DNA from: an uncultured Verrucomicrobiae bacterium
GTDB lineage: Bacteria > Verrucomicrobiota > Verrucomicrobiia > Chthoniobacterales > Chthoniobacteraceae
Reading direction: 5' to 3'
Length of the DNA stretch: 64,000 nt
Assembly (NCBI GenBank): GCA_963751395.1
Contig: CAVVUC010000002.1
Span: forward strand, 1,172,029 to 1,236,028
The stretch's first letter is position 1. Each line of letters opens with the position of its first letter. Below, piece after piece: positions 1,769 through 54,627 of this stretch. The translations under genes and the position numbers were made by a program. Below the pieces are notes generated by a model, which did no database searches, was not told the origin of the DNA, and saw only the letters and a list, made by a program, of their open reading frames with translations.

Positions 1769-3157
1769 CTACGTTGCTTCGCCGAGCAAATCGTAAACTT
1801 GTGTGCCGGTGATGCGCACGTCGATGAATTCGCCTACGGGGGCGGGGCGGTTCAGGATCACCTGGCCGTCGATGTCGGGCGCGTCGGAGGCGCTGCGGGC
1901 GGCGAGGGGTTTCTCGACCAGGACGCGAAGCCGCGAGCCGACCTGCGCCGCGGAGATTTCGCGCGCGATTCTCTGCTGAAGTTTCATGGCGCGCTTGAAG
2001 CGGGCGGTTTTGATTTTCGCCGGAATCTGGCCGGGCATCTTCGCGGCGCGGGAGCCTTCTTCCTGCGAGTAGGTGAAGACGCCGAGGCGCTCGAAGCGGA
2101 CGGTTTCGATGAACTGGAGGAGCGACTCGAAGTGCTGGTCGGTCTCGCCCGGGAAGCCGACGATGAAGGTCGTGCGCAATGCGATGCCGGGGATGCCTGC
2201 GCGGATGCGGGCGATAAGGTTCTCGATGTGTTCGCGGGATGTCTCGCGTCGCATGAGATCGAGCATGTCGCCGTGGATGTGCTGCAACGGCATGTCGATG
2301 TAGCGCGCGACCTTGTCGCACCCGGCAATCGTCGCGATGAGTTCGTCGCTCCAATGCGCCGGGTGGGTGTAGAGGAGGCGTATCCAAAACTCGCCGCCGA
2401 TCTTTTGCAGTTCGCGCAGCAGCTTCGTCAAAGTCGGGCCGCGGCTTGAGTCCACTGGCTGGGTCGGGTTGGCGCGCTGTTCCCACAGGTCCATGCCGAA
2501 GTAGGTCGTGTCCTGGCTGATGAGGTTGATTTCCTTCACGCCCTCGGCGACCAGCGCGCGGACTTCGGCGACGACCGATTCGATGGTGCGGCTTCGATGC
2601 TTTCCGCGCATCTGCGGGATCACGCAGAAGCTGCACGGGTGATTGCAGCCCTCGGCGATTTTCACATAGGCGGTGTGCGACGGCGTGAGGCGGAAGCGGG
2701 GCGTGTCGTAATCCGGAATGTAAACGGGTTTGCGCGTGACGAGGTTCAGGGGCTCCCAGTGCGGATCGGTGAGTGAATGGTGATTGGTGAGTGGTGAATG
2801 GTCAGAGGGTTGGGCGAGGATTTGTGCGACGATTTTCCCAGCATCGGCCACCTGGTCCAGGCCGATGAAGGCATCGACCTCGGGCATCTCGCTCTGGAGT
2901 TGCGTGGAAAAGCGCTGCGCCATGCAGCCGCTCACGATCAGCTTCTGGCCCGGCTTTTTGCGCAGGCCGCGCTGCTGGTGTGCTTCGAGGATGGCTTCGA
3001 TGGACTCTTTCTTCGCGGAGTCGATGAAAGCGCACGTGTTCACGATGAGCACGTCGGCTTCCTCGGCGTCGGAGGTGAGCTGCATGCCGTGCTGGAGAAC
3101 TCCACCAAGCATGATCTCGGCATCGACGAGATTCTTCGCGCAGCCGAGGCTGACCAT
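1769..3157 (-). CDS. rimO: ribosomal protein S12 methylthiotransferase RimO
   Basis: ORF 1769..3205 carries the RimO N-terminal MTTase motif VSLGCAKNLVDAE, the radical-SAM CxxxCxxC (CSFCVIP) and a TRAM-like C-terminus. The true start is probably the internal Met (MVSLGC...) at 3157. The 16 codons upstream, and a linker insert (SDHSPLTNHHSLTDPHW, about 2768-2805), are encoded by heptamer tandem repeats. Confidence 0.85.
   Translation of the reverse strand: MVSLGCAKNLVDAEIMLGGVLQHGMQLTSDAEEADVLIVNTCAFIDSAKKESIEAILEAHQQRGLRKKPGQKLIVSGCMAQRFSTQLQSEMPEVDAFIGLDQVADAGKIVAQILAQPSDHSPLTNHHSLTDPHWEPLNLVTRKPVYIPDYDTPRFRLTPSHTAYVKIAEGCNHPCSFCVIPQMRGKHRSRTIESVVAEVRALVAEGVKEINLISQDTTYFGMDLWEQRANPTQPVDSSRGPTLTKLLRELQKIGGEFWIRLLYTHPAHWSDELIATIAGCDKVARYIDMPLQHIHGDMLDLMRRETSREHIENLIARIRAGIPGIALRTTFIVGFPGETDQHFESLLQFIETVRFERLGVFTYSQEEGSRAAKMPGQIPAKIKTARFKRAMKLQQRIAREISAAQVGSRLRVLVEKPLAARSASDAPDIDGQVILNRPAPVGEFIDVRITGTQVYDLLGEAT
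2768..2805. repeat. single-arm GAATGGT-family heptamer tandem array inserted in frame in the rimO inter-domain linker
   Basis: ggtgagtgaatggtgattggtgagtggtgaatggtcag encodes SDHSPLTNHHSLTDPHW on the minus strand. It uses the same unit family as the 30301-30380 hairpin. Confidence 0.8.
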
Positions 3158-3166
3158 GCCGACCTT

Positions 3167-3205
3167 GGTGATTTTGGAATTTTGATTTTCGATTTTGGAT
3201 TTCAC
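3167..3205. repeat. single-arm GATTTTG heptamer tandem array, translated as the apparent N-terminal extension of rimO
   Basis: ggtgattttggaattttgattttcgattttggatttcac. It uses the same unit as the 21505-21591 element. No obvious partner arm. Confidence 0.8.
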
Positions 3206-4098
3206 TCAATCAGGACGCCGGGCGGCTCGTAGGGAACAGGTTGCCCGTCTCTTGTTAATATCACTGCGTCTTTGTCCCGGATTTCGATCCAGAATTTTGC
3301 GCCTTTGAAAGTCAGTGGACGCTCGTTGGGATAGAGCCAGTCGTTGAAGATGGGCGGGGAACCTTGCGCATCTTTCGTGATTCTCACCCAGGTTTTGGTG
3401 CGTGGTTGTAGCGTGACTGCTCTTTCCAAGCTCGGCGTCGGAGAAGACATCGGTGGAACGGTCAGGTCGGACGACCTCACTGGTTCGGCTCGCCGAACTT
3501 CGACGTTGTCGATCATCTGCGGTGTTGCGGCAGGAGTCGCCGAGGGTTGGGGGACTGGAATGGCGACGCGTTCCGGCAAAGCCACGACGGGAGTGGGCGA
3601 GGGGATGGCAGGCACTTCCTTTGGTGGCGTTGCGGCGGGAGTCGGAGAAGACACGGAACCGGTGGATGCGATTTTGCTTCCGGGGGTTTCGATTTTTCCG
3701 AGATTGATCCGCTGGAGATTGATGACAAAATCCATGACAACCGCGCCGCCCACGAGCACGACCGCGCCGATGATGAGCGGCCTCCAAAACTTCCAGTTGA
3801 TCCGGTTCACGGAGTTGACCGGCGCAGGCTTGTTGCTGAGGTATTCGTAATCGCCGCTGCCGACCGGGTTCGGATTCTCAAATGCCATGACGAACTCGGA
3901 GACATCGACGCCCAAATACTTCGCGTAAATCACCAGGAACCCTCTCGCGTAAGTGATGCTTGGGAAGTTTGTGAAGTCGTCCTTCTCAAGCGCGGTAATC
4001 TGGTCCGGTCGAATCCTCGTCACATGCGAGGCTTCTTCGATGGAAATCTGATTCCTCAGCCGCGCTTCACGCAGCTTTTTGCCGACAGTTGCAACCAT
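3202..4098 (-). CDS. rodZ: RodZ-like cytoskeleton protein (N-terminal XRE-type HTH, transmembrane segment, proline-rich linker, C-terminal DUF4115)
   Basis: N-terminal HTH LREARLRNQISIEEASHVTRIRPDQITALE, one hydrophobic transmembrane segment, a P/T/S-rich linker and a C-terminal motif KTWVRITKDAQG...KGAKFWIEIRDKDAV typical of the RodZ C-domain. Confidence 0.7.
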   Translation of the reverse strand: MVATVGKKLREARLRNQISIEEASHVTRIRPDQITALEKDDFTNFPSITYARGFLVIYAKYLGVDVSEFVMAFENPNPVGSGDYEYLSNKPAPVNSVNRINWKFWRPLIIGAVVLVGGAVVMDFVINLQRINLGKIETPGSKIASTGSVSSPTPAATPPKEVPAIPSPTPVVALPERVAIPVPQPSATPAATPQMIDNVEVRRAEPVRSSDLTVPPMSSPTPSLERAVTLQPRTKTWVRITKDAQGSPPIFNDWLYPNERPLTFKGAKFWIEIRDKDAVILTRDGQPVPYEPPGVLIE

Positions 4099-21504: not shown

Positions 21505-21591
21505 TGATTTCCGATTTTAGATTTTTGATTTTCGACCTGCGAAAAGCAGCGCGCACTTGAAATCCAAAATCCAAAATCCAAAATCCAAAAT
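21505..21591. repeat. heptamer-tandem inverted-repeat hairpin (left arm GATTTCC/GATTTTA/GATTTTT/GATTTTC; right arm GAAATCC + AAAATCC x3)
   Basis: Seen directly: tgatttccgattttagatttttgattttcga, a 23-nt spacer, then gaaatccaaaatccaaaatccaaaatccaaaat. It exactly fills the rpmF-stop to plsX-ATG gap. Confidence 0.9.
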
Positions 21592-22635
21592 ATGAAGATT
21601 GCGCTCGACGCCATGGGCGGCGATTTCGCGCCGAAGAACATCATCGGCGGTGCCGTCCTCGCCCTCGCGGAGTATTCCGAGATCACGAAGCTGTTCCTTG
21701 TTGGCGATTCGGCTCGAATTGAAGCCGAACTCAAGACCAACAACTTCACCGATCCGCGCATCGAGATCGTCCATGCCTCGCAGGTCGTGGAGATGACCGA
21801 CGGGGCGGTGGAGTCGGTGCGGAAGAAAAAAGACTCGTCCGTGAGCCGGGCGGTCGATCTCGTGAAGAATGGCGACGCCGATGCGATCGTCAGCGCCGGT
21901 CACACGGGGGCGGCAGTCGCGGCGACCACGATCAAGCTGCGCACGCTGCCGGGCGTGGAGCGGCCGGGCATAGCGTCCGTGATCCCGACGGAAAGCAACG
22001 TCTTCGTCCTCATCGACGCCGGGGCCAACATCGACGCCCGACCGATCCATCTCCTGCAATACGCGGTCATGGGGTCGGTCTATTCCAAGCACGTCCTCGG
22101 CTACCAGAATCCCGCGATCGGTTTGATGTCGATCGGCGACGAGGACGTGAAGGGGAGTGATTTCACCAAGGAGGTCTTCAAGCTCCTCAAGGACAGCAAG
22201 CTGAACTTCCGCGGCAACATCGAGGGGCACGACCTTTTTGAAAACCCGGTCGAGGTGGTGTTGTGCGATGGTTTTATCGGCAATGTCGTTTTGAAAACCT
22301 GCGAAGCGATCGCCCATGCGATTTTCCAGTGGCTCAAGCACGAGATGTATAAGACGCCGTTGCGCAAACTCGGGGGGATGCTGGCGAAAGGCGCATTCAA
22401 GACGATTTACAAAAAGACGAACTACGAGGAATACGGGGGCAGCCCGCTGCTCGGGGTGAACGGCATCTGCATCATCGCGCACGGATCGAGCACACCGCTC
22501 GCGATCAAGAACGCGATCCGCGTGGCCGCCGAATCGATCTCTCACCAACTCAATCCTCACATCATCGAGGAAATCCAACGCTACCATGAAACGACCACAG
22601 CCCCGCTTCCCGCGCCTCTTCAAACCCAAGCGTAG
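21592..22635 (+). CDS. plsX: phosphate acyltransferase PlsX
   Basis: MKIALDAMGGDFAPKNIIGGAVLAL...GNIEGHD...GSPLLGVNGICIIAHGSS are PlsX motifs. Confidence 0.9.
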   Translation: MKIALDAMGGDFAPKNIIGGAVLALAEYSEITKLFLVGDSARIEAELKTNNFTDPRIEIVHASQVVEMTDGAVESVRKKKDSSVSRAVDLVKNGDADAIVSAGHTGAAVAATTIKLRTLPGVERPGIASVIPTESNVFVLIDAGANIDARPIHLLQYAVMGSVYSKHVLGYQNPAIGLMSIGDEDVKGSDFTKEVFKLLKDSKLNFRGNIEGHDLFENPVEVVLCDGFIGNVVLKTCEAIAHAIFQWLKHEMYKTPLRKLGGMLAKGAFKTIYKKTNYEEYGGSPLLGVNGICIIAHGSSTPLAIKNAIRVAAESISHQLNPHIIEEIQRYHETTTAPLPAPLQTQA

Positions 22636-27882: not shown

Positions 27883-29117
27883 TGGGATTTCAGATTGCAG
27901 ATTGGAAAGCCTGGCATCGCTTCGCTCGTTGCAGCAGATTTCAGATTGCCCGGGTGCGCACGAAGCGAGGATTTCTTCAATCTTCAATCTTCAATCTTCA
28001 ATCTGTATTGGCCGTCCTCCTTCTTTCCGCGTGCCAGGAGCCGGCGCCCCTGCCCGTCGATCCGAACGCGCCGAAGAAACTCGTCGTCCCTGACAAAGGC
28101 GCCTACACCGGAGCCTACATCGATTTCGGCGATACCGAGGACGACGTCACGCTCGAGGCGATCGAGGACTTCGAGACGCTTGTCGGCAAGCACCAGGCGA
28201 TCGTCGCATCGTCGAGTTACTGGGGCGAGCAGACGTTTCCCGCCGCCAACGTCAGCCTCATCTGGCGGCACGGCTCGATTCCTCTGGTCTTCTGGTCGCC
28301 GTGGGACAAGCCCTACGTCGAGAACGAGGACGACGATGCTCCCGTGTGGTATGCCGCCGCCAACAAGTATTCGCTTTGGAACATCATCGACGGGAAGTGC
28401 GACGACTACATCGACAAATGGGCCGATGGCGCGAAGCAGTTCGGCCAGCCGATGTTCGTTTCATTCTGCAATGAAATGAACGGCATCTGGTTTCCGTGGT
28501 CCGGCATTTTTTACGGAGCCGATGCCGATGTGCCCGGCGAGAAGGACAAAAAAATGGGGCCGGAGACGTTCAAGCGAGCGTGGCGGCATGTGGTCGATCG
28601 GGTTCGCGCTCGCGGCGCCACGAACATCCTCTGGGTTTTCCACCTCATGAACTACTCCATCCCGCAGGACAACTGGAACTACGCGAAGCAGTATTATCCG
28701 GGGCCGGATTACGTGGACTGGCTTGGGCTCAGCGTTTACGGCATGCAGGTTCGCGAGGAACACTGGTCGGAGTTCTCGCAAATCATGGTCGATGGCAAGC
28801 TCACCGGCGGCCTGCTCGACTGGCCTTACGAGGAGTTGTGCCGGATGGATTCAACAAAACCGATCATGCTCGCGGAATGGGGTTGCGGCGAGTTTCCGGA
28901 GTTCGGCGACAAGGCGCGATGGATTCGGGAGGGGTTCGAGGAAATGAGAAAGCGTCCGCGCATCAAGGCCGCGGTGTTCTGGCACGAGCGCTGGCAGAAC
29001 GAAGAGGAGCACTACAGCAACCTTCGCGTGAACTCGTCGCCGGAGTCGCTCGATGCTTACCGCAAAGGCGTGTCCGATCCATTCTGGCTCGACAAGCCGA
29101 TCCTCAAGCCGCGCTAA
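27882..29117 (+). CDS. GH26-like glycoside hydrolase lipoprotein (start uncertain)
   Basis: Lipobox-type signal VLAVLLLSAC. The catalytic region is FVSFCNEMNGIWFPWSG (GH26/GH5 NE-acid motif) and IMLAEWG (nucleophile). A start at ATG 27882 would overlap the upstream stop (TGATG) and translate the heptamer hairpin. In-frame TTG at 28008 is an alternative. Confidence 0.6.
   Translation: MGFQIADWKAWHRFARCSRFQIARVRTKRGFLQSSIFNLQSVLAVLLLSACQEPAPLPVDPNAPKKLVVPDKGAYTGAYIDFGDTEDDVTLEAIEDFETLVGKHQAIVASSSYWGEQTFPAANVSLIWRHGSIPLVFWSPWDKPYVENEDDDAPVWYAAANKYSLWNIIDGKCDDYIDKWADGAKQFGQPMFVSFCNEMNGIWFPWSGIFYGADADVPGEKDKKMGPETFKRAWRHVVDRVRARGATNILWVFHLMNYSIPQDNWNYAKQYYPGPDYVDWLGLSVYGMQVREEHWSEFSQIMVDGKLTGGLLDWPYEELCRMDSTKPIMLAEWGCGEFPEFGDKARWIREGFEEMRKRPRIKAAVFWHERWQNEEEHYSNLRVNSSPESLDAYRKGVSDPFWLDKPILKPR
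27883..28006. repeat. heptamer-tandem inverted-repeat element (CAGATTG units; CAATCTT x4 on the opposite arm) with a nested dyad
   Basis: gggatttcagattgcagattgg...gatttcagattgcc...gatttcttcaatcttcaatcttcaatcttcaatctg. Confidence 0.9.
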
Positions 29118-30285
29118 ACTCCCGCCCGATCGAGCAGCGAAGCGAGCACTTTTTCCGCCTCGAAGTATTCATGCGCCACCTCGTAAGCGGCGCGGCAGTG
29201 CGCGGCGTAGTCGGCGTTGATCTCGCGCACGGCCTCGGTGATTTCATCGAGCGTGCGAAATGCGAACAACCCTCGCTGCTGACCGTAGTGCTTCGTGAAT
29301 CCCGTCTCCTGCGTGATCGCGGGACGGCCTGCGGCGAGGTAGCACGCGGTGCGGTCGCTGAACCAGCCGGTGTTCAAGCGCACATACTGATCCTTCGCAG
29401 CGGTGAACTCGCCCTTCGAGTTCCGGAGGTATCGCAGGTAGTCCATGTAATCGATGCTCATCGGGTTTGGGTCGGTGAACCGCCAGCGGTTCTCGAGGAA
29501 AAGCTCGCGCGTCGGCGCGTCGTTGATCGTCGCTGCGAGTTCGAAGTCCTCGCCCGATCGTGCAGGCGCTTCGACGAATTTCAGAAACTCGAGCGACTTG
29601 CTCCAGAGATATTTGTCGCCGCGCCACTCGATGTCCTTGCGGCCGCTGGTGTTCCAGTTGGCGACGGTCGTGAACACGGCTCCGGCGGGCGGCGGCGCGC
29701 TTGCTTTCCAAAGATCGGTCACGACCGGCTGGCGCGTTGGCAGCCAGGTCAACCCGTGCAGCGGCACGGGAAATTCGTCCGAGCCGATGTTCTCTCCGAA
29801 CGTGAAAAGCGTGCGGTGCTTTTTCAAGTAATCGAGTGTTGTCGTCTCGCCCTTGTCCACCTTGATCTGCTCCACGCCGGGATCGCTCTCGACGTAAATG
29901 ATGCGGCCGCTCTGAGCAGGTCCTCGTTGAATTCCTGCGTGCCGCAGATGTTCAGAATCGCATCGGCCTCGCGGTATAACTCGACGATGCGCGACTTCGG
30001 AAGGCCGGCGCACGGGTGGTCCGGCAGGAAACGCGCGCAATAGCTCCAGCGGCCCTCGAACCCGAATTGCGCCGCGAGCTTTTCGAGAATCGACGCGGCG
30101 TAGCTGTAGTCCTCGTTCTGCTCGTAGGTGACCGGGTTGTACGGATAGCGCGCCGAATCTTCGACGTAGTAAACGTCGTGCCCGAGCCGCTGCAACCCGA
30201 CGATGTAATGGACGTGCTGCCAGATGACGCCCGCGATGGGAACGCCGGCCGTGAAGCCCATGACGACGATTTTCTTTTTTTTCAT
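29114..30285 (-). CDS. GT-B fold glycosyltransferase (GT4-like C-terminal EX7E region), one apparent frameshift
   Basis: The N-terminus MKKKKIVVMGFTAGVPIAGVIWQHVHYIVGLQRLGHDVYYVEDS (ORF 29824..30285) continues in another frame as GRIIYVESDPGV...LAAGRPAITQETGFTKHYGQQRGLFAF (ORF 29114..30352). The shift is near 29885-29900, at a gcggccgc run that needs one more g. Confidence 0.6.
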
Positions 30286-30300
30286 ACCTTTGGACGATGC

Positions 30301-30380
30301 GGAATGTGAATGGTGATTGGTGAATCGTGAATGGCGGAGGTGCGATACTCATTCACGCATTCACCAATCACCATTTACGT
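30301..30380. repeat. heptamer-tandem inverted-repeat hairpin (GAATGTG/AATGGTG/ATTGGTG/AATCGTG versus CATTCAC/CAATCAC/CATTTAC)
   Basis: ggaatgtgaatggtgattggtgaatcgtgaatgg, a 13-nt spacer, then ctcattcacgcattcaccaatcaccatttacg. It sits between the GT start and the acetyltransferase stop. Confidence 0.9.
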
Positions 30381-30965
30381 CTTCAACTCCTTTACAATCA
30401 CCGCAGGGTTGCCGGCGACGATGACGTTTTCCGGGACGCTCTTCGACACGACCGATCCGGCGGCGATGACGGAGTTCTCGCCGATGGTCACGCCTTTCAA
30501 AATCACCGCGTTCATGCCGATCCAGACGTTGTCACCGATTCGAACAGGTTTGGCGGATATCGGCGGGCGTTCCGGGCGCGGCTTGCTGTAGGGTGAGATT
30601 GCCATCGCGTCGATGCGGCGCAAGGCCGGTTCAAGCGGATGAAAATCCGAATCGGCGATGCCGACATTCCACGAGATCAAACAATACGAGCCGATCTCGA
30701 TCGACTCCTCGGCCATGATTAACGCGCCGTTCAGCAGCGTATAATCGCCGACCTTGCAGTGACCGTTCACGCCGATTGAAAACGAGACACCGGCGTAGCA
30801 GGAGACGCATTTGCCCAGTTCAACGGCGGGGTCTTTCTTGCTCTTGATGAAGCGAAAAATTTGGGTGGTTTCGCAATAAAGCCCCTCGTCCCATACGACG
30901 TTTGGCGGGATCGGATGGTGGTACCAATCGTCGTCGATGCGGCGGTCTGCGTTGATGTTGCTCAT
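30375..30965 (-). CDS. hexapeptide-repeat (LbH) acyl/acetyltransferase
   Basis: The C-terminal half has left-handed beta-helix hexapeptide repeats ([31 protein letters not shown]). Its last codons overlap the right arm of a heptamer hairpin. Confidence 0.75.
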
Positions 30966-33040
30966 GTCTTTGATGCGGTTCCGCCGGTCCTGGATTCGCC
31001 GGCTCTGGCTGCGTATTGATCTGCGACGGCTTGAAGCGCGTCCGTATTCACGCCTTCCGTGGCGATGCCGATGTTGCTCTTCTCGCTCACGAGCAGGCTG
31101 AGAAGCTGGCCGACCAGGCTGCTGTTCATGCCTTCGCCATCGCCTCCTCCGCCGCTTACAAACAGGCGTTCCGGCACCAGCGGCTGGCTGCTCTTCGAGA
31201 ATTGCTCCGCGACCAGATTCAACGCGAACAGCCTTGGGTCGCGATAAGCGTTCACCTTCTGCAATGTCACCGCCGCCTCGGACAGGCCGATCTGCGCGAT
31301 GCGCGAGGCCTCGCCTTTGCCGATCAGCTCCTTCGATGTCGCTTCGCCTTGCGCGAGCGCGATCTGCCGCTTCGCGAGCCGCTCGGATTCGGCGAGCTGC
31401 GCTTCGCCGCGGTTGGCGGCCACTTCAATGTCGATCTTCGACTGCGTCAGCTCTGTCTGTTTCGCCGCAGCCGCTTCGGCCTGCTTGAACTGGCGCAGGT
31501 TTTCGGCGGCCTCCTGCTGTTTCACATAGGTCGCCTTCTGTTCGTCGGCGAGCCGGCGCTGGCGCAGTTGATCGAACAGCCGCTCGATCGGGTCCTCCTT
31601 GCCGGCCTCGATTTTCGACTCCGGCCGTCCGATCAGCACGGCGACGCAGTTGATGTCGTATTCCTTGAAACGCGCGCCGAGGGCGACCGTCGCCTGCCGC
31701 TGGATTTCCTCACGCTTGGTGAGCAGGTCGAGCATGCTGCTGTTCTGCGCCACGTCCCGGAAATAGGCCGTGAGAATCGGATCGAGCGTCTGGTTGATGA
31801 GCCGCTTCACGTCGCCGAACCGCTGAATCACGCTGGGTGCCTTTTGGTAATCGATATGCACCACCAGCGAGAGCGGCAGCGTCGGTTCGTACGCATCGGC
31901 GGTGATGAGCGCGATGCTTTCGAGGTTCTCGTCGTATTTGTGTTCCTCGACTTCGTTCGTGATCCAGCGCAGGACGAAGTTGATTGTCGGCACGTATTCG
32001 ATCTTCACCGCGTATGGATTGAGCGCGTATTTGCCCGGCGCGAGCGCGTGGCGCCACACGCCGCGCTGGCCCTTCTCGACTTGCTCGCCGTAGCGAAACG
32101 CATCGCCGCTTACGTCGCTGCCTGTCACGCCGTGATAGGAAACGACAACGCCGACGTAGCCGATCGGCACCATGGTTTTCATCTGAATTTCGATCGTCGC
32201 GAACCATCGGTTGATGAAAAACGTGCCGTCGGTGAGCACCTGCAATTGCTTGCCGCGCTTGCCGCCAAGCGCGAGAAACGCCTCGGGGTCCTGGAAGCAC
32301 TCGTGGTCGGGTTGGCCGCTGCCCGGCTTCACTTCGGGTGCGATGATTTCGCCCGAGGCGATCATCGGGCCGTCCTGCACGCTGACAACGCCGATGGTAT
32401 CCGTCGGCAGCAGATAACCGGGGTCGTTGCCCTCCGCGACTGCTGCTCCGGCGGTCCCGATGATCACAGGCTGGAAGCCGCGCATCATGTCGAGCTGCGT
32501 TTTCCATTGCACATATTTCGTCTCCTCGTCGTCGCGGATCGGTCCCGAAAAAACGCGGTCCTCGCTGATGACGACGAACAGCGCGAGGTTGATCGCGTAA
32601 ACGCCTTCGCGAAGAATGGCGCGTTGTCTGCCGCGATGGCCTTTGTTGCTCAGGAACGCCTGTGCGTCCTGGAAGTGGTTGCTCTCGATCGTCGTGCCCA
32701 GCGTTTGCGTCGCCGGCAGCGGCTCGCCGTCGCGCGCATAGACGTAGCCGATCTTGCCCTGGCCGACTGTTACGAGCGGCTGTTTGTGAACGCGGTATTG
32801 CCACGAATAGAGGCCGAAGTGAATGCCGCCGCGCAGAATGTTCGTCTGGAAACCGGCCTCGCCGCTGCGGGCGATGATCTGGCCTTGCTTGAGCGACCCC
32901 TTGGGGCTCCAGAGTTTTTCGATCACGCCGATCTGCGTGTGCGGGATGTAAACGATTCCGAGCAGGCGTGGGAGGAAGAACAAAACGCCGAGGCCCAGCG
33001 CCAGAAGCAGGAGAGTGAAGACGGAAGGCAATGGGATCAT
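30962..33040 (-). CDS. SPFH/band-7 flotillin-like protein
   Basis: 692 aa with an N-terminal TM and an SPFH-like region. It has a long Ala/Gln/Glu-rich coiled coil ([51 protein letters not shown]) typical of flotillin/YqiK proteins. Confidence 0.5.
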
Positions 33041-33128
33041 GGAGCGGTGGAGTTTGTTGTTGCTGGTGAGCGTTAATGGCTACTCAGATGCGACCGAGTT
33101 TGGAAGCGCGAAAAGAGGGGAGGCGATT

Positions 33129-33322
33129 GGCGAAATCCGAATGACGAATGACGAAGCCCGAAGAACTGACGGAAGCGCTGGTTTCGCCCTCACCTCAATC
33201 CTCTCCCAGCGGGAGAGGATCAAGGTGAGGGTCGGCGATGCAACCCGACGCCACGGCCTTTCTTCGTTCATTCCGACTTCGGGCTTGTTTCGTCATTCGG
33301 ATTTCGTCATTCGTCATTCGCC
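33129..33322. repeat. compound element: outer heptamer-tandem arms (CGAATGA/TCATTCG family) flanking a 48-bp GC-rich palindrome (ccctcacctcaatcctctcccagcgggagaggatcaaggtgaggg)
   Basis: Left arm gaaatccgaatgacgaatgacgaagcccgaag and right arm cttcgggcttgtttcgtcattcggatttcgtcattcgtcattcg. The central perfect dyad is ctctcccagcgggagagg. The element ends at the hemL ATG. Confidence 0.9.
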
Positions 33323-33325
33323 ATC

Positions 33326-36460: not shown

Positions 36461-36555
36461 AATGACGAATGAATGTCGAAGCCGGAATGTTCAATGACGA
36501 ATGCGCAAACGAACGGGCACATTCGGATTTCGTCATTCGTCATTCGGATTTCGTC
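36461..36555. repeat. heptamer-tandem inverted-repeat hairpin (AATGACG/CGTCATT family) with an inner dyad ccgaatgt...acattcgg
   Basis: aatgacgaatgaatgtcgaag...atttcgtcattcgtcattcggatttcgtcattt. The right arm encodes the C-terminus (EMTKSE) of the DNA MTase, and the left arm abuts the dppB-like start. Confidence 0.9.
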
Positions 36556-37373
36556 ATTTCAAAAAGTTCATCCGACAATCGCTTGCGCGCCTCCTTCAAA
36601 TACTCCTCGTCGATCTCGAAGCCGATGAACCTGCCAACGCCGCATTCCTTTGCGGCGAGCGCGGAGTGGCCGATGCCGAGAAACGGATCGAGCATCACGA
36701 GTCCGGCGCGCTGGCCGTGGAGCTTGATGCATTGCGTGGCGAGCGCGACCGGGAACGTCGCCGGATGCGGGCGCTCCCCGGCGCGGCTCTTGATCGTCTT
36801 GTAGGGAATGAACCAGTTGTTGCCGCGGCAGCGCCGGTCGCGCCCTTCGGTGTGGCCCCAGCGCGCGATGTTGCTCTTGTCCGAGTATGCGACGCCGATG
36901 GCGAGGCGGTCGAGTGTCACGAAGCCACTTTTCGTGAGATGGAAAAGATATTCGTGGCAGTCGGTGATGTAGCGCGGCGAGTTGATCGGCTTGAAATGCC
37001 CCGCCGAAATGTCCAGGCCGTCGCGAGTCGTCACGGTGATCGACTTGATCCAGTGGATCGTGTTTTGCAGCACGAAGAGCGGCCGGAGTTGCAGTACCAG
37101 CTCGTGCGGCAGCATCGGGTTCGCGGGCGCCGCGCCGACGTTGAGAAAAAACGAGCCGTCCGGTTTGAGCACGCGCTTGATCTCGGAGGCCCATTGCCCG
37201 CACCAGTGGAGATATTCCTCGCGCGCCGCGTCGTCGGAATACTTCGAATACGCGATGCCGAGATTGTAAGGCGGCGAGGTCACGACGAGATCGACCGACT
37301 CGCTCGCGAGCGCGCGCATCCCGGCGAGGCAATCGCCGTGATGCAGTTCGAATTCCGTGTTGGTTTCGGGCAT
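36540..37373 (-). CDS. DNA methyltransferase, beta-class amino-MTase (N4-C or N6-A; SPPY motif)
   Basis: From the internal Met: MPETNTEFELHHGDCLAGMRALASESVDLVVTSPPYN (D21-class MTase motif IV). The SAM-binding motif LDPFLGIGHSALAAKECGVGRFIGFEIDEEY is C-terminal, as in the beta permutation. The C-terminal codons EMTKSE* are encoded by a heptamer hairpin arm. Confidence 0.8.
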   Translation of the reverse strand: MPETNTEFELHHGDCLAGMRALASESVDLVVTSPPYNLGIAYSKYSDDAAREEYLHWCGQWASEIKRVLKPDGSFFLNVGAAPANPMLPHELVLQLRPLFVLQNTIHWIKSITVTTRDGLDISAGHFKPINSPRYITDCHEYLFHLTKSGFVTLDRLAIGVAYSDKSNIARWGHTEGRDRRCRGNNWFIPYKTIKSRAGERPHPATFPVALATQCIKLHGQRAGLVMLDPFLGIGHSALAAKECGVGRFIGFEIDEEYLKEARKRLSDELFEMTKSE

Positions 37374-37551
37374 GGCGGAATTGATTAAAGCGAAACGCGG
37401 GGCGGAACCAGCCGAATGTTCGTTTACGCAAAAACCGGCCCGCCGCAACCTGAATTGCTCGCCCGCCGGAAGCGTGCCGCACATTAGCCAGTGGCGCTGG
37501 CCTCCGAACCGCCATCCCAACCCACATCCGCCCCGGCAGGGCGCGGGAATG

Positions 37552-40500
37552 TCACCACGTCTGGCTGCGGGTGCGGTAGGCGCGGGTGAAGCGGTCGGTG
37601 GCCGTCAAGCCGGTGCGCAGGCCGAGGCGGCGGCGTTTCGCGAAGGGCAGGTTTGGCTGGACACGACGGAGCATCGGGTCGGCTTCAAATTCGCGCCAGA
37701 TGGTTTCAAGTTCTGTCTGCGGCAAACCGTAGGCTTCGGCCACGCAGGCATCCACGGCATCCAGCACTTCCTCCAGGGCGGATGCGCCGCTCTCGCCTGT
37801 GAGTTGAACGGCTATCGCGCGCCACCCGGCGAGCGCGGCGGGCGGCGGAATCGGGAGATCGAGGAGCGCGGCGAGGCGCAGACTTTCGCCGGGATGCAGG
37901 AGCAGACCTTCGACAAACGCAGCAGCGAGTTCGCGGTCGTTGAAGGCCGCCCATTTCTCCACGTCGTCGCCGGGCTGGACGATCCATTGGCCGGCGAGTT
38001 CGGTCGTCGCGGGGACACCGATCTCGCATGCTTCGCTGCCTTGGAGCGCGGGGCACCAGTCCACCCGAAGATCCACACTGCCACGCAGGCATTCGCGGAC
38101 GCTCGCCGCGCCGAATGTCGCGAGGCGGTCGCGCAACACCTGTTCGGTCTGGTGAAGCTGCTGGCAGGCGGCGAGAAATCGTGTGCGAAGGGTGCGCAAC
38201 TGCGGCGCAAATTCGAGGAGTCGATCCGTCCACGGCAGTCGGCTCACGGTGGTCACGTAAACATTTGCCCGCGCACGAAAGAGCACCGCTTCGCGATGCG
38301 CAATCGCCCAGACGTATTGATAAATGCGAGAGAGAACGAGCAAGTCGAAGGGAAAGTCAGCGAGACGATCCTCCGGAAAAAAGAGACTTGCCGTATTCAA
38401 CAGAATCAATTCGTGCGGATCGAACGGCGCGCAATAAAGCGCCGGTGCGATGCGATGAAACGCAAAACCCTTCACCGGCAAAATATCGGCGAATCGCCAC
38501 ACGCTGGAGTCGTCCATCCGCAACACGTCGATGTTCGTTTCCACCGGCTCGCCTTCGATCGCTCCAGCCGCGATGTGCTCGCCTTTGAAAACGGGCAATC
38601 CGCCTTCATCGGCAGTGACTCTTTGGCCACGAAATGCCGCGCCCATTCGAATCATCGTCTCCTGTTCCCAGCGCAAATTATCCGCATCGTCGGTCGGTTG
38701 TTCGCGCGCCCAGCGAACGATACGGGCTCCGCGTTTGCCGACAAAAAAGCGCTGCGCAATGTCGCCAAAAGTCTGACCAACGAAACGGTCGAGAATCCGT
38801 TTTCGCTCCGGCGTCAGCCGCGTCAGCCAGCGCCCATCCGCGCTGAACAAATCGGCGTAAGGCAGTTCCACGACCGGCGCGGATTCGAGATCGAAACGGA
38901 CATGCACCTCCTCGCCCTCGGTGAAGACCGCGCACCGCTCGTCCGCGACGCGGAGCCGCACCGTCTCCCCTTCCAGCGCCGGACGCCGCTCCGCGAGCAG
39001 GATCATGCAGACGACATCGGCGCCAAAAAGCTGCGGACTGATCAATTCCAGATCGACAATCTCGCGCACCGTCCAGCGTCCCGTGCCGGGGCGGAAAAAC
39101 TCGCGGAGTTTCGCGCTGTCGTCGTTGTCGCCCACCGAGAGCGGCAGCACGAAGCCGAGGCGTCCCGGCGCGCGTCCTTCGCCGCCATTCGGGCGCAGCC
39201 AGTAGTCGAGCGCTTTGAAAAGAAAGAGATTGCAGAGATTGCTGCGCGCGGAGAATTCCTCGTCAAAGTAGGCGATGGCGGAGGCATCGAGCGGCACGGT
39301 CTGGCGCTCGGGGCGGACATAGGGCGGATTGCCCGCGACGGCGTCGTAACCGTAGGTGTCCACGAGCGCGAACTCGTTCAGCTCTCCGGCGAAAAGCCCG
39401 GCGGAAATCTGCGGCGCGTGCAGTGAATCGTGACCGCCGGTGACGGTTGGTTCGGGGAAACCTTGAGCCTGCAACTGCTCCCGGAAGGCGAACAGATGCC
39501 AGAGGATTTGCAGTTGGGCGATGGTGGCGGAGAAGGCGTTGAGGTCGTTGCCGCGGACATTGGCGAGCGTGGCGAGCGCCTCCTCCCATGTGGCTGCACC
39601 GCGACTGGCCGCATCGCCGATCATCGCCTTCCATGCCTCGATGAGAAACGTGCCGACGCCACAGGTAGGATCGAGCACACGATTGCCGGGGCGCAGGTCG
39701 AGGTGCCTGACGATGAAGCGCGCGACTTCCGGCGGCGTGTAGTGCTCGCCGTATTCCTTGCGTTGCGTGTTGTCGAGGAACTGGCCGTAAACGCCGCTGA
39801 GCACGTCCTGCTCGACCGTGGAGAAATCGAAGCGGGAGAGATAGAATAAGGCGCGCTCGATGGCTGTGGAAAGATGCGGGTCGGCGCAGGTGAGAACCCA
39901 GTCGAGACTGCCTTCCTCGAAAAAGGCCGCCGCGAGATGAGCCGCCGCACCGTAGCTTTCGCGCAGAAACCACGCATAGCCTTTTTCGAATACCCTGCGC
40001 CAGGTCTGAAACGCGGCGACACCGCCGTTGCAGAGGTAGCGTTTCTCTCCGAAAAAACCGTGATCCTCGAAGAATCGCAGCATCACGCACCGGGCGATGA
40101 GCAGACTGGACGTTTCGGAGGCGAGAAGCGTGACGGCGTTGCGGCTCTCTTCTTCCGGCGATTCGCCTTTGGCGCGAGCCTCGTATTCGGCCAGCGTGAA
40201 GCATCCCAGACGCGCCGCCGCGAGATTGTCACGCACCGTCCGCCGGAATGCGGCAACGGCTTCCCGGTGCCGTTTCATGGCCTCGCGGTTCGGGACGTTC
40301 CTTCCGCGAAGCTGGAATGGATCGAGATGAAAAGTCTCGATCTCGAATTCCACCGCAAACGCATCGCGCATCTCTCGGATTTCGCGGGCGCGTTGCGCAA
40401 GCGTTTCGAGAGCACGCTGGCTCGCGAGATTGAGCAGTCCCGCGGCGCTGCGAAGTGCAAGATAGAATTCGGCGCGCGCCTCCGAGAGCGTGAGTTCGTC

Positions 40501-54142: not shown

Positions 54143-54526
54143 TTACTTGATTTCGACCTTGGCTCCAGCCGCCTCGATCTTTTTCTTGATCTCTTCGGCT
54201 TCTTCCTTGGTGACGCCTTCCTTGAGCGGCTTGGGCGCGCCTTCGACAAGGGCTTTCGCTTCGGCGAGACCGAGACCGGCCACCGCTGCGCGGACTTCCT
54301 TGATGACGGCGATCTTGTTGCCGCCGGTTTCCTTGAGGATCACGTCAAATGACGTTTTCTCTTCGGCAGCAGGAGCCGCCGCGCCTGCGGGCGCACCGGC
54401 TGCAGCCACGGCCACGGGAGCCGCTGCGCTGACGCCCCACTTTTCTTCGAGGGCTTTGACGAGTTCGGCGACTTCAAGAACGGTCAGGCCGCTGAGTTGT
54501 TCCACTAACGTGTTGGTATCTGCCAT
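54143..54526 (-). CDS. rplL: 50S ribosomal protein L7/L12
   Basis: 127 aa, [32 protein letters not shown]...KVEIK. Confidence 0.95.
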
Positions 54527-54530
54527 CTGT

Positions 54531-54627
54531 AAATTATGAATTATGAATTATGAGTTATGAATGAAATCCGCCGCGGCATCGCCGCGCAATTTTCACTTCA
54601 TTCTTCATTTTTCATCCTTCATCCTTT
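54531..54627. repeat. heptamer-tandem inverted-repeat hairpin (ATGAATT/ATGAGTT versus TTCATTC/TTCATCC)
   Basis: aattatgaattatgaattatgagttatgaatgaaat, a GC-rich spacer, then tttcacttcattcttcatttttcatccttcatcc. It lies immediately upstream of the rplL start codon. Confidence 0.9.

Follow-up and report, generated by a model that had tools for sequence, protein, structure and literature searches.

The rimO locus

The stretch analysed here (the window, 64 kb of contig CAVVUC010000002.1) comes from a soil Verrucomicrobium of the Chthoniobacteraceae and codes for RimO, the ribosomal protein S12 methylthiotransferase. Two arrays of tandem heptanucleotides are associated with the rimO gene, one at its 5' end and one in the region encoding the linker between the UPF0004 and radical-SAM domains. 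Both are probably neutral passenger copies of a dispersed heptanucleotide repeat, which selection has filtered to permissive sites of the protein. RimO was compared between the window and Chthoniobacterales loci (labelled L001 etc.). Arrays were called with Tandem Repeats Finder (TRF). The locus comprises:

1769-3205, minus strand: rimO, 478 codons when counted from the GTG at 3205
2773-2802, minus strand: linker heptamer array (TRF period 7, unit GTGAATG, 4.3 copies, 86% matches)
3170-3202, minus strand: 5' heptamer array, 33 nt (TRF period 7, unit GATTTTG, 4.7 copies, 80% matches)
3203-3205, minus strand: candidate GTG start, overlapping the TGA stop of the rodZ-like gene (3202-3204) and preceded by an in-frame TGA at 3206-3208
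3155-3157, minus strand: alternative ATG start (codon 17), with AAGG at about -10 to -7
3202-4098, minus strand: rodZ-like gene upstream of rimO (Pfam HTH_25, NCBIfam RodZ)

The initial annotation had assigned the open reading frame (ORF) at 1769-3205 to RimO, and this assignment is confirmed. The protein matches TIGR01125 over its full length (480 bits, 5e-144), well above the curated cut-off of 357, and it contains the three domains of the family according to Pfam (UPF0004, residues 14-115; Radical_SAM, residues 182-366; TRAM_2, residues 422-477). The CxxxCxxC motif of the radical-SAM domain is present as AEGCNHPCSFC, and RimO from Thermotoga maritima (PDB 4JC0) is matched at 1e-90. The closest relatives are 82-83% identical (best 83% among 5.8 billion proteins) and belong to Chthoniobacteraceae and other Verrucomicrobiota. 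Since even the closest RimO is only 83% identical, the collections contain no conspecific contigs. In a protein alignment, length variation of RimO is limited to the N-terminus, the linker between UPF0004 and the radical-SAM domain, and the C-terminus. The gene order with the rodZ-like gene is conserved in L081, L083 and L085.

The array in the linker

On the sense strand, the linker array reads CATTCAC CACTCAC CAATCAC CATTCAC, with a single G in 30 nt. Its extent is best seen by comparison with the array-free ortholog L006. The window has a 30-nt block GACCATTCACCACTCACCAATCACCATTCA (nt 2774-2803, residues 135-144, DHSPLTNHHS) where L006 has a single codon. Because both flanks of this codon align, the inserted piece is 10 codons that replace one codon, with a net gain of 27 nt. 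The adjacent SLTDPHW (SLTDxxW) is native sequence, as judged against array-free orthologs. The plus-strand string initially reported for the array (2768-2805) matches the sequence exactly. The array was, however, said to encode a segment of 17 residues exactly, and this part does not hold: the segment (residues 134-150, nt 2756-2806, 51 nt) is too long for an array of 38 nt, and the insert covers only 10 codons.

The insert is lineage-specific, as had been proposed. It is missing from many Chthoniobacterales, and the alignment with 4JC0 has a 19-residue gap exactly at the insert, at HSPLTNHHSLTDPHWEPLN. In the window and 71 Chthoniobacterales loci (72 sequences), the linker length was counted from FIGLDQ up to the residue preceding the conserved YIPD motif. 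Most linkers have 27-28 residues, those of Chthoniobacteraceae having the native LTDxxWEP motif have 34, and that of the window has 43. The array-free orthologous sites of L006 and L010 are devoid of a seed heptamer. The same linker was not found in RimO proteins from unrelated taxa, and the relatives that carry the insert (L081, L084, L085 and L001) share it by descent. The units in three of these are:

Linker units, L081 (P0007): CATTCAC CAGTCGC CGATCAC CATTCAC
Linker units, L085 (P0020): CATTCAC CATTCAC CCATCGC GAATCAC
Linker units, L084 (P0003): CAATCAC CAATCAC GAATCAC CAATCAC

The copy in L001 has an equal length, is located at the same site and has decayed toward GC-rich codons. The differences between the arrays of the window and L081 all change the amino acid (L/V, T/A, N/D), which is as expected for an unconstrained peptide. 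With orthologous and partly decayed copies at the same site in related species, the linker insert is old.

The length differences between orthologous coding arrays are 0, -3 or +6 nt, none being 7 or 21 nt, and steps of 7 nt at the rimO array would be lethal frameshifts. It had been suggested that arrays of 21 nt (3 x 7) preserve the reading frame. This rule was dropped, given array lengths of 30 and 33 nt (modules of about 30 nt, net gain of 27 nt) and the length differences between species. The units CATTCAC and CAAAATC are free of stop codons in all frames when in sense orientation, while GTGAATG, the reverse of CATTCAC, contains TGA; the unit orientation thus fits a selection filter.

An AlphaFold2 model assigns residues 1-9 and 135-150 of RimO a predicted local distance difference test score (pLDDT) of less than 50. 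The low score at the latter residues and the restriction of arrays to length-variable segments of RimO are in line with the proposal that the repeats are tolerated in a disordered linker. A local hairpin at the rimO arrays was considered and is ruled out by the weak folds (-6.2 and -10.4 kcal/mol, 56-nt windows).

Other units are found at the same linker site in other species: CCATCAA in L007 (x4.3, perfect), ATCTTCC in L008, CCAGTCA in L015 and L080 (x4.1) and a CAACACT-type array (TRF consensus) in L027. In the Udaeobacter-like L049, L050, L056 and L071, the linker contains a whole in-frame hairpin with two inverted AACGCCC-type arms (-47 to -62 kcal/mol). When period-7 TRF arrays of at least 21 nt are counted in the 71 other species, 11 are in the linker (7.7 kb in total) and one is in the N-terminal tail; the other ~82 kb of RimO coding DNA has none. 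The simplest reading is that modules are born at a high rate throughout the genome and are then subjected to a selection filter, so that site-specific integration is not needed.

Two of the linkers have additional features. That of L056 (70 residues) has a heptamer hairpin which appears to hold a second insertion in its loop. That of L075 (77 residues) contains about three tandem copies of a ~36-nt unit (GAAAACCTATCGGGGCAGGCA...), a different repeat type at the same site.

The dispersed repeat family

A period-7 array was considered strong when at least 17 of 21 positions match. The window has nine such arrays, compared to 0-4 for periods 4-6 and 8-12. The expectation from shuffled sequences is 0.03 arrays (third-order Markov) or 0.015 arrays (triplet), with a maximum of 1. 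TRF reports 13 period-7 arrays in the 64 kb. With at least three head-to-tail copies and a period-7 excess at dispersed loci, the arrays have the properties of heptanucleotide simple sequence repeats (SSRs) and resemble the short tandemly repeated repetitive (STRR) sequences. Array lengths peak at 29-33 nt in the window and 80 related loci. A strict size quantisation at ~30 nt was considered but had to be softened, because the metagenome matches listed (see below) peak at 3-4 units and roughly halve with each extra unit.

Outside rimO, the arrays of the window are found at gene boundaries, and most of them are inverted pairs that fold. Five such pairs are present (MFE, minimum free energy):

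21505-21597: hairpin of GATTTTN and AAAATCC arrays in the rpmF-plsX spacer, MFE -28 kcal/mol
27886-28004: inverted pair, MFE -48 kcal/mol
30302-30378: intergenic hairpin, the arms of which are the composite module of the linker array, MFE -51.5 kcal/mol
33125-33325: inverted element, MFE -112 kcal/mol, with its right arm ending 2 nt before the hemL ATG (33326)
54525-54627: inverted pair, MFE -36.4 kcal/mol

The initial annotation placed the linker array and the hairpin near 30301 in one repeat family, and this is well supported. Each arm of the hairpin agrees with the linker array in 20 of 21 nt, with the same order of variant units (CAyTCAC-CAATCAC-CATTCAC), and no such match was obtained in 100 shuffles. 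Because these internal variants are shared, sequence seems to have moved between loci rather than having grown independently from local seeds. The 5' rimO array shares its unit family with the two arms of the rpmF-plsX hairpin (matches 21506-21592). A third set of loci shares a 20-mer, TTCGTCATTCGGATTTCGTC, which contains the odd unit TTCGGAT. It occurs exactly at 33289 and 36536, and with one mismatch at 33129 (minus strand).

The 5' array and the start codon of rimO

The sense strand of the 5' array is AAATCC AAAATCG AAAATCA AAATTCC AAAATCA, with a single G in 36 nt. The array represents codons 2-13 (KSKIENQNSKIT) if translation starts at GTG 3205, and it represents a 5' leader if translation starts at ATG 3157. 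The initial annotation attributed 16 codons to the GATTTTG array, placed the beginning of the conserved part at MVSLGC and considered the upstream codons as an N-terminal extension. The array itself is real, but only codons 2-13 coincide with it. The conserved core of RimO already begins at KVG (K14-V15-G16). All orthologs have a non-conserved tail ahead of the conserved K-V/I-G, which is about 8-13 residues long in most predicted proteins and 13 residues long in the window. Because the tails of the orthologs have a similar length, the N-terminal stretch of the window is not an extension, and it is distinctive only in being array sequence. An orthologous 5' array or its relic is present in L004 (VNSKIETPDSKIAKVG) and in L083 (which encodes P0001; VNTEIKTAHTKVAKVG). 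The tail of L007 contains a different array (CTCCCAA x3.4).

We favour GTG 3205 as the start of RimO, which would imply that the 5' array is translated; based on the sequence comparisons, this is reasonably likely. An in-frame TGA immediately precedes this codon, which is therefore the only in-frame canonical start (ATG, GTG, TTG) upstream of K14. The alternative is an untranslated array that would serve as a G-poor, unstructured intergenic leader and aid initiation at ATG 3157, leaving only the linker array as in-frame protein. We consider this to be the less probable solution, though a serious one. AAGG is found 5 nt before ATG 3157, and the same array-AAGG-ATG layout, as read from the sequence, is present upstream of the gene starting near 30285 (minus strand). 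Sister arrays stop 1-2 nt short of the confirmed starts of plsX (ATG 21592) and hemL (ATG 33326), which have no Shine-Dalgarno sequence. Heptamer repeats are also found beside start codons in Beggiatoaceae and Nostoc, and a translational role has been proposed there (see below).

The conservation of KVG, the three residues directly before ATG 3157, argues against a start there. In almost all of 80 species, these are conserved as amino acids with wobble at the third position (GTC/GTG/GTT/GTA or ATC; GGC/GGG/GGA/GGT). There is no start codon at position 17 in L020 (GTC), L076 (ATA), L085 (CTC) and many proteins with KVGI or KVGV. K14 is the first residue covered by the TIGR01125 profile and by the 4JC0 alignment. 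Also, the GTG followed by exactly 16 codons, together with the GTGA overlap with the stop codon of the rodZ-like gene, is preserved in the window, L004 and L083. The 16-codon tails of the window and L004 have 2, 2 and 2 differences at codon positions 1, 2 and 3 (aligned sequences read by eye), which is uninformative with respect to translation.

Other arrays in the window

The heptamer units are nearly G-free on one strand (CATTCAC, CAAAATC, TCTTCAA, CTTCATC, CATAATT, TTCGTCA, CCATCAA, CCAGTCA). This applies to all arrays of the window and to those of L007, L008, L015 and L050. The five inverted pairs of the window all have the G-rich arm ahead of the G-poor one, whichever strand is read. Scanned in full against Rfam at gathering thresholds, the window gave no match, so its hairpins do not represent a curated RNA family.

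The rpmF-plsX spacer (87 nt) consists wholly of the hairpin. Its left arm begins right after the rpmF stop codon (21504), a single base separates its right arm from the plsX ATG (21592), and a Shine-Dalgarno sequence is lacking. The element at 33125-33325 (~200 nt) is located between a divergent gene (30962-33079, minus strand) and hemL. It has TTCGTCA-type outer arms and a separate GC-rich core hairpin, and each arm contains little G on the sense strand of the gene that it faces. A DNA methyltransferase gene (36540-37604, minus strand) takes its final codons (EMTKSE) and its TGA from a TTCGTCA-type array in the stop-containing orientation (36529-36558).

In the pair at 27886-28004, there is a perfect TCTTCAA array (x4.4, 27974-28004). 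Provided that GTG 27951 is the start, this array shares the reading frame of a putative lipoprotein signal peptide (..RTKRGFLQSSIFNLQSVLAVLLLSAC; region 27951-28010) and may be a second translated one. NCBIfam gave no match here. The pair at 54525-54627 is located between convergent genes. Here, a GC-rich stem (GCCGCGGCATCGCCGCGC) with a T-rich run after it is enclosed by AATTATG (x4.4) and CTTCATC (x4.4) arrays, and the arms pair only in 5-bp blocks with 2-nt internal loops between them. This pair may act as a terminator in both directions. The unit family of 54596-54626 recurs in L008, where an inverted AAGGATG/TTCATCC pair (1541-1615, 4.3 copies each) is directly upstream of the rimO start.

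Metagenome contigs were scanned for exact matches to the composite 18-mer TCACCAATCACCATTCAC, without a control unit and without a taxonomy check. It occurs at at least 120 loci (L086-L205), and the contig G+C ranges from 0.30 to 0.72 among the matches listed. Most of the matches listed are embedded in longer TCACCAA/TCACCAT arrays, with a mode of 3-4 units. Among the matches listed, 24 of 121 arrays are accompanied by an inverted partner no more than 300 nt away, and 35 of 121 are located in a frame without stop codons over at least 600 nt. This suggests that the TCACCAA/TCACCAT unit family is not confined to one lineage, which remains a lead as the scan had no control unit. We take this unit to resemble the cyanobacterial STRR2 heptamer (TTGGTCA, reverse complement TGACCAA) and the Helicobacter pylori heptamer GTGATTA.

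Origin of the arrays

We propose that the genome harbors a family of ~30-nt modules. Each would consist of ~4.3-4.7 tandem AT-rich heptamers that are G-poor on one strand, and the modules would be located mostly at gene boundaries, often as inverted pairs able to fold into hairpins. New copies would arise by a copy-and-paste, template-switch or gene-conversion process, and slipped-strand mispairing may homogenise the units afterwards. A copy within a gene would survive only if the module length is a multiple of 3, if its orientation is stop-free on the sense strand, and if the protein segment tolerates about 10 added disordered residues. Just two segments of RimO would comply with this, the N-terminal tail and the UPF0004/radical-SAM linker, and modules would have been collected there repeatedly across the Chthoniobacterales. 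An ancestor of one Chthoniobacteraceae subclade may have acquired the linker module of the window in a single insertion, with 30 nt taking the place of 3 nt. The module would then have been inherited vertically as a neutral, slowly decaying passenger, encoding a peptide with no specific function.

Several points weigh against this proposal. All compared genomes are from other species and none is conspecific, which bears on current mobility and instability. Neither a target-site duplication nor any other mark of insertion was found, and no transposase either, with the window ORFs not having been scanned for Y1 transposase. The perfect 4-copy arrays (L007, L015, and 21560 and 27974 in the window) show that local homogenisation or slippage also operates. 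The AlphaFold2 model is of moderate quality (mean pLDDT 71, from a shallow alignment of 38 sequences), which makes the disorder call soft. The 5' array may have a role in translation initiation. Finally, two arrays could have one variant unit in common by chance (about 1 in 80 on our own estimate), but the TTCGGAT variant, being common to three arrays, is much harder to put down to coincidence.

In a distinct explanation, chance heptamers in the linker and in the 5' region expanded purely in situ through slipped-strand mispairing, with no transfer between loci. Heptanucleotide SSRs are reported to be the most abundant class of long SSRs in many bacterial genomes and have been ascribed to polymerase slippage (Mrazek et al. 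2007, via PMC4679880, PMC4692102), and the perfect lineage-specific arrays (CCATCAA in L007, CCAGTCA in L015) do need homogenisation. We nevertheless regard growth in situ as distinctly unlikely. The empty orthologous sites do not contain a seed, separate loci have an identical order of variant units, and other species hold whole in-frame hairpins with two inverted arrays in the linker. Moreover, the lengths of orthologous coding arrays differ by 0, -3 and +6 nt rather than by 7 or 21 nt.

That the inserts are adaptive, with a His-rich linker peptide being useful to an Fe-S enzyme or with an mRNA element regulating rimO, is very unlikely. There are four His among the 17 residues of the linker peptide, and the insert persists across species with ~80% identical RimO. 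The peptide is, however, not conserved, and other lineages have unrelated peptides or none at this site. The changes between the arrays of the window and L081 are all non-synonymous, and the copies in L001 and L083 decay toward ordinary GC-rich codons. A regulatory element is at variance with the weak local folds and the lack of an Rfam match. Least likely by far is an artefact of assembly or sequencing, or a phase-variable contingency locus. Short tandem repeats can be mis-assembled, and some pathogens owe phase variation to units with a length indivisible by 3 (PMC4692102), but the arrays are at the same codons in independent assemblies (L081, L082, L084, L085, L004 and L083). They are also imperfect (80-86% matches) with about 4 copies, and the frame is kept across species (the window, L081, L084, L085, L004 and L083), in contrast to what is expected of a contingency locus.

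It is tempting to extend the proposal of passenger modules beyond this order. The modules might be more than products of local slippage: they might belong to a G-poor class of sequence-related units shared across phyla (e.g., TCACCAA and TCACCAT), be spread by transposase-independent copy-and-paste, and act as unstructured leaders for translation initiation at starts that lack a Shine-Dalgarno sequence, with the RimO linker as a recurrent trap that records independent insertions order-wide. We consider this wider scenario as tentative and rather unlikely.

Comparison with known repeat systems

The Rickettsia palindromic elements (RPEs), reported by Ogata and coworkers in 2000, are said to be short non-autonomous repeats that are in frame within conserved genes, at surface or linker positions where added residues are tolerated. 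Cyanobacterial small dispersed repeats, reported by Elhai and coworkers in 2008, are likewise said to be in-frame selfish repeats inside conserved genes. The rimO arrays are RPE-like in that they belong to a dispersed family, are in frame at permissive sites of a conserved protein, and have struck the same gene independently in different lineages. RPEs are palindromes of 100-150 bp without an internal tandem structure. In contrast, the rimO copies of the window are single arrays or arms of 30-33 nt with weak folds, and a palindrome is found only in L049, L050, L056 and L071. Unlike in repetitive extragenic palindromes (REPs) and the hairpins formed by pairs of them (REPINs), the arms described here consist of tandem heptamers.

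Three tandem heptanucleotides are known in Calothrix PCC 7601 (the cyanobacterial STRR heptamers). An excess of heptanucleotides among long simple sequence repeats (LSSRs) of many large bacterial genomes, with polymerase slippage as the proposed cause, is attributed to an earlier survey as relayed by later papers (Mrazek et al. 2007, LSSR(5-11), via PMC4679880, PMC4692102). Examples are GGGAATC in Xanthomonas and GGGGAYT in Nostoc, some of which are in inverted pairs (PMC4692102). The arrays of the window share with these heptanucleotide LSSRs the few-copy tandem 7-nt units, the many dispersed and mostly intergenic loci, the preference for period 7, the occurrence of some inverted pairs with stem-loop potential, and a sequence that varies between related species (PMC4692102). 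They differ by their host (Chthoniobacteraceae), by AT-rich, G-poor units that do not form G-quadruplexes, by several coexisting families, by array lengths that cluster near 30 nt, and by two copies inside a conserved housekeeping gene.

In marine Beggiatoaceae, TAACTGA repeats immediately precede start codons, which often lack a Shine-Dalgarno sequence; the orientation of the repeats is limited by stop codons, and a few copies are found at ORF edges (PMC4679880). In Nostoc PCC 7120, TTTTGAA and GAYAAT repeats are near to or overlap with start codons (bioRxiv 10.1101/2022.06.06.494920). Similarly, the window has direct repeats of 2-6 heptamers immediately upstream of starts, often lacking a Shine-Dalgarno sequence, the orientation is constrained by stop codons in the unit, and copies are occasionally at ORF edges. 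The unit sequences are, however, different. Also, most TAACTGA copies in ORFs were reported at protein ends, while the stop-free orientation found here permits a fully internal copy in the linker.

A literature search for heptamer or tandem repeats in Verrucomicrobia, Chthoniobacter and Udaeobacter found nothing specific. What is new here is the recurrent capture at one linker across an order, and the composite modules that are common to coding and intergenic copies. Apart from this, we regard the locus as a fairly ordinary case of repeat DNA that is tolerated inside a conserved gene.

Implications

Low-complexity peptides (HSPLTNHHS, KSKIENQNSKIT) and ambiguous starts in such genomes derive from heptamer arrays, which should be kept in mind upon genome annotation. 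The length-tolerant parts of a highly conserved enzyme are a natural trap for the repeat DNA of a genome. The RimO linker and N-terminal tail of Chthoniobacterales are thus a handy marker with which repeat invasions can be dated and compared between lineages. If the modules are mobile, or if they serve as leaders for starts without a Shine-Dalgarno sequence, this would bear on the question of why large bacterial genomes favour heptanucleotide repeats.

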